In this document: positions 11,713 to 19,252 of the stretch, piece after piece
Numbering within the stretch: the first letter of the stretch is position 1
Layout of the letters: each line of letters begins with the position of its first letter
NCBI GenBank assembly: GCA_023920165.1
Contig: CP089274.1
Location: 4,774,001 to 4,838,000 of the forward strand
Reading direction: 5' to 3'
From: Curvularia clavata
Lineage: Eukaryota
Length of the DNA: 64,000 bases
Notes under the pieces: model-generated
Told to the model about the DNA's origin: nothing
Databases searched by the model: none
The model's input: only the letters and a program-made list of their open reading frames with translations
Translations under genes and position numbers: made by a program

Positions 11713-13699
11713 TTAGAGAATGCCGCCCGCAAAACTTGACGCCCTTGTCGGTCTGGTCCGTATTTCAGGACTTCTGCCATCGCCGTCCCATCCGTGCATG
11801 GATGGAACCTCGCCCCTGCTTCCGTTCTTCCTCAACTGCACACCATCACCTCCTGCAATGCTCCCGGCAGGCGCAAGATCAAAAGGCTTCCTGCGCCTGA
11901 CAAGCTGGTATCCTCGGTCAAGTTCGACTTCAATGGCACACCTGATTTTCAATGCTGTGACTGCTGGCCACACAATCCTCTCACCTTTCAGTATCCAGTA
12001 GTCTATTGCTTCTTTTGTTGGGTTCTCCAGAAGCTTGAAGAAATCGCTTGGTGTGAGTTCGGGCACGAGCGTAAGGCTAGGCCCAGGAATGTTTTCATCG
12101 AGTAAGAAACGTCGGATTGACGGAGAAAGTAGACCGAGCTCATCTAGCTGTTGCAATCTGTGCTGTATCTCCAGGACTACAAGACGAAGAATTGGCATAC
12201 TAAGTCGCAAGCGACCGTCCTGTTTGGGGTTCGGATGATGTAGGTCGGAACGAAGAAAGGGCGCAAGATAGGGCCGCGCCTGTGAGACAATAAAGTGGTT
12301 TACGTTGAAAAGCTCTCCAATACGATGTAGAGGCGACTCGCGGTCACGGTAGGAAGCGTGAGTATACGGACGGAAAGTGGTTTTAGAGGCTGGAGACCAG
12401 GGAACGATATTGCCTTCTTCGTCCTTGCACATCATTGTAACCGGGTGATATAGCGTCGACGAGGCCGTCGCATTGGAGGCGAGGGCTGCGGACCAGATGA
12501 GCTGCAGCTGTCAGCAACTTCTTCAACGGACGAATACCAGTATACGTACCACATTGGGAGCTGTCAGGTAGTTGAGTAGGTTTGGAACGCTGTCACCGCC
12601 ACTAGTCGTGACTGTGATATTCAAAACCCTCTTTGTCCTCGCATATGCTTCCTCAAAGGTCAGGTCTCCGACATTGGCTCTCAGGACTTGTTCGAGTACG
12701 CCCACGTCCAGGAAATGGCCTTGATTCCACCATCTCTTCACACGGCGTATGAGGGTTTCGAGCCGTCTAGTGCCTCTAGTGCCTTTCCTATATGGGCGGT
12801 TCGAGAAGGCTGTCAGATCGATGTTCCTCCCCGTCAGAAACTCTAGTAGCTCGTCTTCCGTATGAACACCCACCAGTGCCGCTATGAGTGCCCCAGTAGC
12901 AGTTCCAGCAATGATTCGAGGAAGCAAACCGCGTAAGTGCAGTGCTTTGACAACACCCAGGTGACATAAGCCAAAGACTTGTCCGCCCTGAAGTACAAGG
13001 ACCGATCTCCCAAACGCTTGCCTCGTATCGTGAAGAACGTCCAACTTCGCCTGATTCGTCAAACCTGTGTCCGAGTTCCTCGACGTAGGATATTGTGTGA
13101 GATTCTCGATTGCGTAGGCAACTTGAGTGACGTAGTCTTCGATCAGGAGTTTTGTCCCCGCATAAGCACGGTTGTAGAGTCGCGAGGCGGTTATGTTTCC
13201 GAGATTTCGTACGAGACCGCTGCGCAGCAGATTGATGACGCCAAGGATATCATTGTCTTCTTGGGCGTCGTAGAGGGCAGAGAGACGCTGGTGGATGAGG
13301 CGATGATCGTAGTCTTTGCTCTTTGCGGTCTGTCGCCTGTGCGCCATAGTCAGTCGAATGCCCAAAGAGCGCGCGTCTTGTTGAGGATGAAACGGAAGGC
13401 TTACCACAGGTCATAGTCGAGGACTTCATCGAGCTTGTACGCAGCGGCCTCCCATTCTTCAAACAACTTTGCATTGCTGATTGCCTCCAGCAACAGGTCC
13501 CTCTGACTCTTTTGCGTCCACCACGCGTAGAGTTTCTTCAACATGTCAGCTCTGCACACAGGAGTGCTCCAAGCAGCTACTCAAATGGAATAGTCGATGC
13601 CGGGAGAAGACGTACCCTCTGCCAAAAGAAAGCGACGTCAAACAAGCATAAGAAGAAGCTCCACAACGCCCCAGACGCGATGCTTAGCCATCCATTCAT
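11713..13699 (-). CDS. Patatin-like triacylglycerol lipase, Tgl3-like; exons 13699-13616, 13535-13405, 13336-12550, 12501-11713
   Basis: RSGLVRNLGNI, GRSVLVLQGGQVFGLCHLGVVKAL, GDLTFEEAY, LLNYLTAPNV-LIWSA, LFNVNHFIVSQARPY; N-terminal hydrophobic helix. Nucleophile motif reads GTATG. Confidence 0.9.
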
Positions 13700-13984: not shown

Positions 13985-14602
13985 ATGCCAGGTTCATCTC
14001 TTTGGCTGTTGCCGCCGGCAGATCACCCTCTCAACAATGTCTTGCCGGCACTCATCGACAAAACATCCGGGCAGTTTGGTTCCCCGCACCGCTTCCTCCC
14101 CCACGTCACCCTAACGTCCGAGATCTTGCCATCAAAATACGGTTCGGATGCACAGGCATGGCTGGATTCTCTTGACTTGGTTTCCGGGAATGATGTTCGA
14201 GTCAATTTCGAGCGACTAGGTAGCGAAGATGTCTTCTTTCGAAAGTTGTACATCAAGTGCGAAAAGGACGATGGGCTGCGAAAGCTAGCAAAGCAGTGCA
14301 GGCAACAAGTGGAGGGGTTTTCAGATGAGAAGATGGCAGAGGATTGGTCCAAAGAAGCGTACATGCCACATCTCAGTTTGATGTAGTAAGTTTGTAGACT
14401 CGAATGAAGTGCGCATGTGCTGACATGTTGTAGCCACGACTGTCCTCAAGTGGATGCAAGAGGGCTAGCGTCAGTGGACATGCTTGAGGTCCAAACCGTA
14501 GGAACCTCACCAATGAGGGGCTGGGTTGGTGGCAGAGTGGTGCTAGTGCCGACTGATAGATCGATAGACCAGTGGTCACCCATTGCCGTAAGGACAATTT
14601 GA
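13985..14602 (+). CDS. CPD1: 2',3'-cyclic-nucleotide 3'-phosphodiesterase (2H phosphoesterase, Cpd1-like); intron 14386-14433
   Basis: SLWLLPP start, two HxT/S motifs (PHVTL, PHLSLMY), C-terminal VLVPT...W. Confidence 0.85.
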
Positions 14603-14782
14603 CATTGCTGTAGCCTCAAGATCTTGCTCGGTCGCGAACACAGACAAAATTGAAATGAAAAATATAAGTGGACAGTTGTTACGATGCCTTTCATTACTAA
14701 ACTAATATTACAGTGTTATAGGAAATTATCCCTGGTATCGCTTTCATGTCTGCTGATCGCGTCGTGTCATTTTGCTATGCAC

Positions 14783-16320
14783 TTATTTCATAAATCCGGC
14801 CTTGCCATCACCATCGGCATCAACCTCTGTAAAATTGGTTAGCAACCTGGCCAATGCACGGTTTCTTGTGACCTACTGGGGTTGAGCTTGTCCAACAGGC
14901 TTGGCTTGCGTTTACCTGCTTATTGTTGGCCTTTCTTTTCTTGCAATAATCTCACTTGTTCTTCTTCAGCCTGGGTGTGCGGACGGGCTTTAGAGACATC
15001 TTCTGTGAGAGCTCTAGGCAGGCCACCGTCCTCATTGGGACGATGGGCCAAGTCACCCTTGTCACTGACACCATGCGGCCTTCCCTGGGGGTCAAGCGTA
15101 CCTGTAGCGCCCATGTGTTCTGGCTCGGAGTTAGCTAGATTCGCGTGTCTTTCTTGGTTACACATACTATCGCGGGAGGGATCGTTCAAGTCGCTGCTGT
15201 CAACAGAGCTGCGGTTGTGCGACCCAGTCTTGGACAGGTCGTGAGCATCAACCTTGCCATCATTGTTGCGGTCCATGGGGTTATGAGTCCCAGCGTGGGT
15301 TCCAGTTTGGCTCTTCAAGTCGCGAGCATCAACCTTTCCATCATTGTTGCGGTCCATGGGGTTATGAGTCCCAGAGTGGGTTCCAGTTTGGCTCTTCAAG
15401 TCGCGAGCATCGACCTTTCCATCGTTGTTGCGGTCCATAGGGTTGCGAGTCTCGTAACCACCCGCATAGGCTCCGGTTTGGTTGTGGGAGCCGCTCTTCA
15501 GGTCGTGAGCATCAACCCTACCGTCATTGTTGCGGTCCAAGGGGTTGCGAGTCTCAAAGTCGCCATGGCGAGCTGAGCTGTGGGGCGCGGTATGGCTGTG
15601 GGGTGTGGTCTTGTGAGAAAGGCCCTCAGAAGCAGCGAGAGTGCTAACACCTCCAATGTTCTTAGGAACACCGTCAAATTCATCGTATCGTTCCTCACGA
15701 CCTGTCAGGGAGCCACCCTTGGCCTTGAACTGCTCCATGGTCATCGCAGGCAGAGCAGTGGTCTCATGGTGGGTAGCCTTGTTGTGGTGTACCTCGTGAA
15801 TGGGAACTGTGGTGTGAACCACGCTGGGCTGAATAGTCTCCTTCTGAACCACGGGCTGAATAGTCTCATGAATGTGCTTGAAGATGTCAGCTTTAACAAT
15901 AAAAGGAAAGTAATGTTGCGGTACACTTACGTGGTGAATATGTTCTCCGCCAATGGTGGGAGCAACGCTCTGGCTGTGAGTGGTCTCCTCGACGCGCCTC
16001 TCGTCCGCAAAACGGGCTTGTTCATCAATCAGGGCTCTCTTGGTGCCTTCCATATCACGGTGGTCAAACTCGCGGTGCTGGACTGCTCCAAGCTTGGCAG
16101 TGTGTTTCTCTGGAAGGACCTCTCGGTCTTGGATAGGCTGGATAGTGCGGTGGTAGTGGTCTTGGTGAACCTCCTTGTCAATCGCGGTGTTGATCTCCTC
16201 GTGAACATGGGGCTTGATGACCTCGTGCTGCACAGCCGGAGCAACCGCCTCATGGACAGTAGTGTCATGATGGCCTGACTTGCCCATGAACTCAGTGATC
16301 GCTGCCTTTGCTTTATCCAT
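14783..16320 (-). CDS. His-rich 'allergen-like' fungal protein with four DxNxDG repeats and two possible C-termini (stop at 14920 or 14783)
   Basis: MDKAKAAITEFMGKSGHHDTTVHE.. family N-terminus; in-frame intron 15877-15930; donor at 15167 with acceptors at 15120 or 14916; final intron 14827-14876 gives KPSLLDKLNPKVDADGDGKAGFMK*. Confidence 0.8.
15237..15548 (-). repeat. Four coding tandem repeats (spacing 81, 81, 102 bp) encoding NP(M/L)DRNNDG(K/R)VDA(R/H)DL
   Basis: Near-identical units gagcatc(a/g)acc..cc(a/g)tc.ttgttgcggtcca at about 15241, 15322, 15403 and 15505. Confidence 0.92.
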
Positions 16321-17811: not shown

Positions 17812-19252
17812 ATGAGGGAAAAATTCAAGGCCGTGCTTCACAGAAGGAAGAGGTCAACTCCAACACAATCTCCACGAGCATCATATGAGCAGTCTGAATA
17901 TGGTAGTCCACATGCTGAGGAGAGTCCTAATTCCCACCTTCAACACGATCGACGCAGGTCTTCGGCGTCTCATAACGTCTCTCCCCGAAGAAGTCATGTT
18001 CAGACATCCAATAGCACACACATAGTCGGTCACTTGGCTACTGCACCACTTGAATCTGTCCACAATTCACCGTCAAATGATACTACATCCAGCCAGTCGG
18101 TCGCCGACAACAGCAGGACCCATATGTCTACCGTCGCTCCTAGCGAAGATTTGGCGATAGAAAGCAGCGACACCAGTCCTTCAGCATCGTCTCACGATAC
18201 TAATCGGTCAAACCCTCTTCTACCAACATCATGTACGCTCTATGGCATGCAACTACCGGAGACAAAAGAACTAACTCATACACAGATTCTAACAATGGCG
18301 GTGCTCGAGAAGAATTTTTCGGTAGGGCTGTTACCACCAATGGCAACCTGGTAGAGAAACCTCAGTGGGATCATACAGCGAACACAGGAAGAAGGCGATC
18401 GCAGAGCTCGGGAAGAGACAGGCATGTTCATCGGGATATGGCCGTCAAACCTGCCGATTTTGACACTTCTGGTGCCCACGATGGTACATTCAGTGGTGAC
18501 GAGTGGCAATCCAAGCAAGAATCAATGCTCACGGGAGTAGTGGATTTAGGTAATACAGTAGATACAGACAGAGAAACTTCATGGGCTCCTGGTAAGTCAT
18601 GCTTCTACTGCAATCTAGTGCAGTTATCAAACTACATGTATAAAGTCGTCTGACCAGAAGCATAATAGCGGTTACGCACGAGGTTGTCAAGCCTCACGAG
18701 CACGAGATTGTCCAGCACAAAATCTATCGAGAGATCCACAACTATACCTACTACCACCGACTTCAGCCTGTAATGCAAACCGAAGTTCTTCCACCCCGTC
18801 ATTTCATCCCTAACCCCGATGGAGAAGGATTGATTGAGATTTCGGCTGATGAACTGCCATCTCGAACAGGCAAGAATAGATGGTGGGATATTGTTCAAAA
18901 GGAACCAGTGCTTCCAGAAGCCCCGTTTCGATGGCGCACTGAGCCACAAGTCATCGAGGGGAAACCATACATGACCGACGAGGGCTTCGAACGCAGAGAG
19001 ACCACCATCATATATCCACCGACGCTGGAAGATATGTCGAATTACGGTGGAATGATACAACCCGTCCATTTCGATCACAAGACTGGAAGGCGTTGGCTGG
19101 GGGAGATAACCACCGTCGAGAAGTTAAAACGAGAGCTGGATGGTATAGATGATGGCGACTTTATGAAAATGAAGGACATCACGGCCAACTTGCCTGGAAT
19201 ACCTGAGAGTCCATTGGTTAAGCGAAAGCCTGTTGAGAGGAACTCTTTCTGA
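17812..19252 (+). CDS. Hypothetical protein with the same His-rich domain as the divergent neighbour; exons 17812-18232, 18286-18591, 18669-19252
   Basis: Three ORFs joined by GT-AG introns; spliced product contains WAPAVTHEVVKPHEHEIVQHKIYREIHNYTYYHRLQPVMQTEVLPPRHF. Confidence 0.8.

Follow-up and report, generated by a model that had tools for sequence, protein, structure and literature searches.

Splicing or retention of a conserved coding intron gives two messages with different predicted C-terminal ends in a His-rich gene of Curvularia clavata

In Curvularia clavata, a gene on the minus strand of the 64,000-nucleotide stretch analysed here (the window; contig CP089274.1, positions 4,774,001 to 4,838,000) raises the question of how a conserved C-terminal tail can be expressed when it lies behind an in-frame stop codon. 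Read without splicing, the gene is a single ORF of 466 aa running from the ATG at 16320 to 14920, where a TAA (14922-14920) closes it and the same frame runs on into a KPSL..DKLNP motif, a situation that a first-pass annotation of the window had described and that we confirm in the sequence. That annotation proposed one gene with two isoforms, with or without an extra loop, arising from a phase-1 donor at 15167 that joins either an acceptor at 15120 or a distal CAG at 14916, and it regarded read-through of the TAA as a less likely route. The reading which we consider probable is a different one, in which intron 3 of the gene is an optional coding segment that is partially spliced, so that the protein ends either in the tail or in the segment.

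All features of the gene lie on the minus strand. Exon 1 (15931-16320, from the ATG) encodes the first part of a His-rich N-terminal domain labelled 'Allergen' in UniRef, and exon 2 (15168-15876) encodes the remainder of this domain together with four NPxDRNNDG repeats; they are separated by intron 1 (15877-15930; 54 nt, GTAAGT..AAG). Intron 2 (15120-15167; 48 nt) has a strong GCTAAC branch site and is followed by a micro-exon of 18 nt (15102-15119), which is present in both isoforms and is also 18 nt long in Stemphylium-like and Alternaria-like loci. The donor CAG/GTACGC at 15101, which surfaced on listing all in-frame routes around the TAA, opens intron 3 (14916-15101; 186 nt, acceptor CAG), the alternatively retained segment, which holds 60 codons in frame and encodes a conserved HRPNEDGxLP[KR]ALxE motif (15000-15044). 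The TAA of the retained isoform (14920-14922) lies 4 nt before the acceptor end. Exon 4 (14877-14915; 39 nt) encodes the first half of the conserved tail, KPSL..DKLNP, and beyond intron 4 (14827-14876; 50 nt) the coding part of exon 5 (14783-14826) adds the second half, DADGDG..GFMK, and the stop of the spliced isoform. The lengths of introns 1 and 2 are also multiples of three, and neither contains a stop, which leaves the unspliced gene as one ORF; since intron 1 measures 49-52 nt in three related loci, this length looks like chance.

RNA evidence came from four of 24 listed runs (X1, X4, X9 and X10, from four studies and all as assembled contigs). None of the listed runs is on record as RNA; the four, whose RNA status is a guess, were taken as RNA only because their contigs contain spliced joints. 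Intron 1 is spliced in all four runs. The joint from 15167 to 15120 is listed in X1, X4 and X9 and is also present in X10 by way of the micro-exon, and intron 4 is spliced in X1, X4 and X10, so both of these introns stand as the first-pass annotation had drawn them. Intron 3 is spliced in three of the four runs, giving a product of 399 aa with the KPSL..DKLNP..DADGDG tail: a full-length contig of 1177 nt from X10 passes from exon 2 through the micro-exon to exon 4, and the same letters recur as loose ends in X1 and X4. Among the joints tried, 15101>14916 alone reproduces the observed spliced contig, and neither 15101>14919 nor 15167>14916 does so.

The latter joint occurs in none of the four runs, acceptor 14916 being served instead by the previously overlooked donor at 15101. 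A choice of donor 15167 between acceptors 15120 and 14916 is thus very improbable, even if the direct joint would be in frame and might persist as a minor form, given that rare variants drop out of contigs. The observed joint includes the micro-exon, which is skipped in none of the 45 related proteins with a recognisable junction, although many of these are gene predictions and not transcripts. Moreover, a metagenome motif search with a 15-codon query returned 14 loci, 13 of the window-gene (allergen) type and one of the Dhn2 type, and the donor, as CTACAG/GTACG, is present in all 13 of the former.

Intron 3 is also retained in three of the four runs, giving a product of 432 aa with a 60-codon extension up to the TAA at 14920 and without the tail. 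X1 and X4 each hold a retained contig of 240 nt (depth 78.9 and 32.5, respectively) from which intron 2 has been removed and which is therefore not genomic DNA, and X9 holds a retained piece of 162 nt (depth 3.46) that covers 14877-15030 and with it part of intron 3. No retained form is among the contigs listed for X10, which is no proof that X10 lacks it. Rough estimates from contig depths put the retained share at about 0.36 and 0.29, that is, roughly two thirds of the mRNA is spliced and roughly one third retained. Retention of intron 3 and splicing of intron 4 are not combined in one molecule among the listed contigs of this species, the retained ones of which end short of spanning intron 4; intron 3 kept with introns 2 and 4 removed was seen only in Alternaria-like contigs (L008, L009 and L015). 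Among the same 45 proteins, largely predicted models, 11 are spliced with the micro-exon, 31 are retained and three are of another kind, a disagreement between database models that two alternative messages explain; one spliced protein with the tail (P0162) falls in the same cluster as Alternaria-like retained forms. The claim of one gene with two isoforms accordingly holds in so far as two mRNAs exist, with and without the tail, and fails as to mechanism, which is retention or splicing of intron 3 and not acceptor choice.

Contigs of X1, X4 and X9, from three studies, cross the TAA without a single differing letter, which excludes a sequencing error at this codon. The first-pass annotation would have counted as refuted if the TAA were a strain-specific mutation or a sequencing error and orthologues read straight through; many orthologues do indeed read through, but the stop is neither specific to a strain nor erroneous. 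Ribosomal read-through of the TAA as the route to the tail might be invoked, as the frame stays open beyond the stop and relatives have sense codons at the aligned position. Splicing, however, already supplies the tail, a UAA with G as the next base terminates translation efficiently, and in nine Alternaria-like loci with a 188-nt intron the tail lies out of frame behind the stop, so we agree with the first-pass annotation in ranking this route low and hold it to be extremely improbable.

What makes splicing partial is suggested by the ends of intron 3. Its donor is good and its 3' end is weak and purine-rich, the best branch candidate being a weak GCCAAC (at 14930) 15 nt from the intron end, in agreement with the weak branch point noted earlier for the distal CAG at 14916. 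The spliceosome would consequently remove intron 3 from part of the messages, and the purine-rich 3' end could itself be imposed by coding constraint. Spliced mRNA would then be translated into the 399-aa form ending in KPSL..DKLNP..DADGDG and retained mRNA into the 432-aa form ending in the HRPNEDGxLPRALTE segment. According to PMC6173133, decay can be triggered by a junction located at least 50 nt downstream of a stop, a route that operates in Neurospora. As the distance from the TAA to the last exon junction is 43 nt, below this limit, the retained message is expected to be stable and to be translated.

A stop-free run of 60 codons arises by chance in about 7% of base shuffles, and it is codon-level conservation, not this length alone, that disfavours a chance origin of intron 3. 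Constraint was measured on 44 gap-free codons of the window and one locus from each of five groups. In 12 of the 15 pairs dN/dS was 0.05-0.25 (the other three were saturated), variable columns were distributed over the three codon positions as 16/14/41 of 44, and median pN/pS was 0.28 in the coding frame compared to 1.39 and 1.53 in the other two frames. Identity reached 0.71 in intron 3 compared to 0.51 in introns 2 and 4. Because the metagenome loci had been found by the motif itself, the full-length dN/dS values are biased downwards; when the 15 search codons were left out, median pN/pS was 0.40 with a maximum of 0.63, and variable columns were 14/13/29 of 29. The constraint persists among stop-bearing Alternaria-like loci (dN/dS 0.05-0.10). 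By these alignments intron 3 is evolving as protein, under purifying selection, and the tail-less form is more than a truncated protein, a point that the first-pass annotation missed, because the retained intron carries a conserved and constrained motif of its own.

This bears directly on the possibility that retention reflects noisy splicing at a weak branch point and that the retained mRNA yields no useful protein. The branch site is weak, both isoforms are known at the RNA level only, and passages of bioRxiv 2021.11.08.467853 describe fungal retention as common and rising in dormant tissue, all of which such noise would fit. It does not account for third-position bias and low dN/dS that extend to stop-bearing lineages and beyond the search motif, for a retained share near one third, or for the recurrence of this optional segment in another gene family, and we regard it as improbable. 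Intron 3 does exist as an optional coding segment, and the support for it exceeds that for most retention events.

Variation within the segment is seen in some protein models as well. Plenodomus-type models P0019, P0026 and P0030, compared to P0018, P0020 and P0024, exit just after the NEDG residues, which suggests a second donor inside the segment. In more distant Pleosporales, the near-identical pairs P0027/P0028 and P0075/P0079 differ mainly by a segment with the PKAL motif, suggesting that the optional segment is old.

The 3' end of the segment occurs in several states across relatives. Read-through from the segment into the tail is found at the DNA level in Pyrenophora-like loci L004 and L013, and at the level of protein models in five Bipolaris, three Pyrenophora, A. 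panax and Clathrospora, as well as in outgroups such as Plenodomus and Neocucurbitaria. In the window (TAA) and in a Stemphylium-like locus, L006 (TAG), a stop in frame lies 4 nt short of the acceptor end, and the models of Exserohilum and Decorospora terminate at the residue that closes the window's retained form. The nine Alternaria-like loci, and with them most Alternaria, reach a stop by a frameshift in the 188-nt intron that makes the acceptor TAG the stop codon, about 39 nt before the last junction. Since the outgroups read through, read-through is probably the ancestral state. On a tree of 30 proteins (27 rows labelled by state and three unlabelled, with the trait's own columns included and named gene models scored at the protein level), stop and read-through change into one another four times on the best tree, and at least three of these changes are forced by starred branches; the stop states represent either repeated gains or one gain with reversions.

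As two minor points on these loci, the Stemphylium lycopersici model P0007 does not have the stretch in which L006, 89% identical, carries its TAG, and this model may hide the stop by a very short predicted intron; the Pyrenophora-like genomic loci L004, L005 and L013 have lost intron 2, which makes exon 2 and the micro-exon continuous.

The segment is an in-frame insert ahead of the tail in outgroups and Dhn2-type paralogues, and the stop of the window and the different mutation of Alternaria each make segment and tail mutually exclusive, these end states being visible in the loci and their direction being our reading. The optional coding segment appears to be ancient, and several lineages seem to have turned it into an either/or exchange of the tail. 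The Bipolaris retained form keeps the tail, so loss of the tail is not required. In the ten stop-bearing metagenome loci and in the window, the distance from stop to acceptor is 0 or 4 nt and no stop occurs further upstream among the variable final 15-20 codons, and this confinement to the very end of intron 3 may reflect avoidance of decay.

The strongest rival departs from the preferred explanation in this last step alone. It holds that the motif encoded by the intron is all that counts in the retained protein and that the tail is dispensable there, stops and frameshifts having drifted in and out with no selected switch. A 3' splice site is rich in words resembling TAA and TAG, the codons of Q, Y, F and S, which read-through relatives carry at the stop position, can be one or two changes away from these stops, the state flips at least three times (four on the best tree) across the 27 labelled rows, and close relatives keep both motifs. 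Drift would not by itself predict that stops keep to 0 or 4 nt from the acceptor or that two different mutations have the same outcome, but it stays strong because avoidance of decay could explain the position of the stops without any switch, and we rate it only slightly below an even chance.

The alternative messages can be compared with those of a known gene. According to the passages of Pochon et al. 2013 (PMC3788798), AbDhn2 of Alternaria brassicicola has introns of 54 and 57 nt and a retained intron of 159 nt, its isoforms alpha and beta have 453 and 400 aa, and GFP fusions give two bands on blots; the protein is associated with peroxisomes, and the authors found no function or accumulation specific to either isoform. 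Like the window gene, AbDhn2 yields a pair of mRNAs depending on whether a single in-frame coding intron is retained, and the primers in the table of that paper encode a KAGIMD end, the same tail class as in the window gene. Unlike in the window gene, where retention removes the tail, both AbDhn2 isoforms keep it (PMC3788798, same passages). The window gene also differs in its His-rich 'Allergen' N-terminal domain, in having no DPR motif in either isoform, where the dehydrin type carries such motifs, and in its Gly content of 8% compared to 21% (Gly/Ser/Thr of AbDhn2, 21/13/16% in PMC3788798). The traits expected of an AbDhn2 orthologue, five DPR motifs, 11-aa N-terminal repeats and a Gly-rich composition, are absent from it, and orthology was rejected on its lack of DPR motifs, its Gly content and the presence of a separate gene, rich in DPR motifs, on contig C8 of this genome. 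AbDhn2 itself is not named among the matches of the homologue search. Orthology had been suggested by an A. alternata orthologue without a DPR motif (OWY48522.1, P0153), which is labelled 'dehydrin-like protein 2b', a label that probably arose by similarity through shared C-terminal modules.

The C8 gene is of the Dhn2 type and ends in the same module, matches the retained segment of the window with 47% identity over 47 aa (E 3e-9, pairwise), and is, next to the window gene, the only match to the tail pattern in the genome. In this C8 paralogue (L020 2090-2300, about 1854420-1854630) the corresponding borders of the LPKAL segment lack canonical splice sites, donor and acceptor alike, and the segment may be constitutive. 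A 53-aa (159-nt) LPKAL stretch, its borders set by pattern, is present in all 12 examined Dhn2-type proteins that agree with two AbDhn2 primers, 11 of which fall in one 90% cluster. It contains 5-6 Gly, 5 Ser and 3-4 Thr with a GRAVY of -0.9 to -1.2, near the difference between the alpha and beta isoforms (5.1, 4.1, 1.7 and GRAVY -1.06, from the composition given in PMC3788798). Near the start of one Dhn2-type member lies an insert of 18 aa, which equals the 54-nt intron of AbDhn2 in size, and in locus L003 a GTGAGT donor and a CAG acceptor flank a version of 111 nt. The window gene, for its part, has what defines the AbDhn2-type retained intron, a phase-1 optional LP[KR]AL segment before a KPS..DKLNP tail. 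As primers, the 159-nt length and composition agree, the 159-nt intron of AbDhn2, which is known here from these three features, is very probably homologous to intron 3 of the window, and the tail swap is a variant of the already known AbDhn2-type switch.

In plants and animals, an exitron is an optional coding segment with splice sites at both ends that gives the full-length protein when retained. Intron 3 resembles an exitron in having both a spliced and a retained mRNA, a length of 186 nt that is a multiple of three, and coding constraint; it differs in its in-frame TAA and in that the spliced form is the major one. The definition fits the Bipolaris and Pyrenophora orthologues better, the segment being stop-free in the Pyrenophora-like loci L004 and L013.

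The closest homologues of the encoded protein are Pleosporaceae proteins labelled 'Allergen' or hypothetical (best 120 of 785 matches). Among these best 120, the tail pattern occurs in 99, an LP[KR]AL-type motif in 45, both in 34 and neither in 10, and DPRVDSD is carried by 13, which are more distant. Fungal proteins labelled 'Allergen' in UniRef and NCBI share with the window gene a His-rich N-terminal domain of 200 aa and the C-terminal tail; the label is an automatic one with no Pfam family behind it. An Atlas look-up gave clusters named 'hypothetical protein' and 'Allergen' only, and the exact ORF sequence of the window was absent from the protein collection searched. The protein is hydrophilic (GRAVY -1.10 and -1.15 for the two isoforms), without Cys or Trp and with 9.5% His, 8% Gly, 6% Ser and 8.5% Thr. 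AlphaFold2 modelling of the B. sorokiniana orthologue P0002 from 106 sequences gave a mean pLDDT of 52 and a pTM of 0.19, with no confident fold: 275 of its 444 residues have a pLDDT under 50, five short helices are present, and few stretches exceed 80, one of them being the tail. With low pLDDT as a proxy, the protein is predicted to be largely disordered. The four NPxDRNNDG repeats reach significance with Pfam EF-hand models in sum (E 2e-9) but no single stretch passes, and in this low-confidence model the DxDxDG loop has no flanking helices, so that the loop-between-helices arrangement of an EF-hand was not found. Jointly with the optional-segment explanation, and thus at the strength given to it at the outset, we take the product to be probably a hydrophilic, mostly disordered, hydrophilin-like Pleosporaceae protein.

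On such a disordered stress protein, segment and tail might act as short binding or targeting motifs, the splice ratio setting which of them is present. That the motifs have this role and that the ratio shifts with stress or spore dormancy is a tentative proposal, to which we give somewhat less than an even chance. Passages of bioRxiv 2021.11.08.467853 describe intron retention as the commonest splicing event of filamentous fungi (61.9%), favouring long GC-rich introns, the retention of which rises in conidia of F. graminearum; this rise makes regulation by dormancy plausible, yet retention is also common as such. Fungal dehydrins are marked by stress induction through Hog1 and by association with peroxisomes; within 1200 nt upstream of the window gene, one STRE-like and one CRE-like word occur, counted without a control and given no weight. 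Bolder still, the LPKAL segment and the KPS..DKLNP..DxDxDG tail may together form an old portable module common to two fungal stress-protein families, converted more than once, by different mutations within the decay-safe zone, from an insert toggle to a stress- or dormancy-set either/or switch between targeting or binding motifs; in this full form we judge the proposal unlikely.

Fungal intron-retention events with evidence of a conserved protein product are few, and support here comes from RNA in this species and in Alternaria-like contigs together with codon-level constraint. The likely AbDhn2 counterpart was left in passages of PMC3788798 as two isoforms on a blot that were never explained; the two short motifs named here, and the natural variants that carry them together or singly, make that isoform question testable. 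In the literature searched, outside which most subscription papers fall, we found no paper on splicing of the window gene or on the tail motif, and no account of the module that the two families share or of how it was repeatedly converted into a tail swap; the passages of PMC6730492 name no match to the window gene.

Some observations concern the surroundings of the gene. A divergent neighbour on the plus strand (about 17812-19252) has a stretch with 46% identity (E 2.8e-5) to residues 29-74 of the His-rich N-terminal domain; two of its ORFs have no match in Pfam, and by this similarity it may be a head-to-head distant paralogue. On the other side, within 13985-14688, a convergent cyclic phosphodiesterase-like (CPDase) gene ends near 14386, and RNA contigs are continuous from the 3' end of the window gene past 14500, which suggests that the two genes have overlapping 3' UTRs. 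A patatin and DUF3336 lipase-type gene lies nearby (11713-13347, minus strand), with no link to the tail swap. Finally, within exon 2 a repeat unit of 81 nt (15257-15337), identical in 79 of its 81 positions to 15338-15418, is skipped with non-canonical ends in the RNA contigs of all four runs, reflecting either a difference in repeat number between strains or a collapse during contig assembly.
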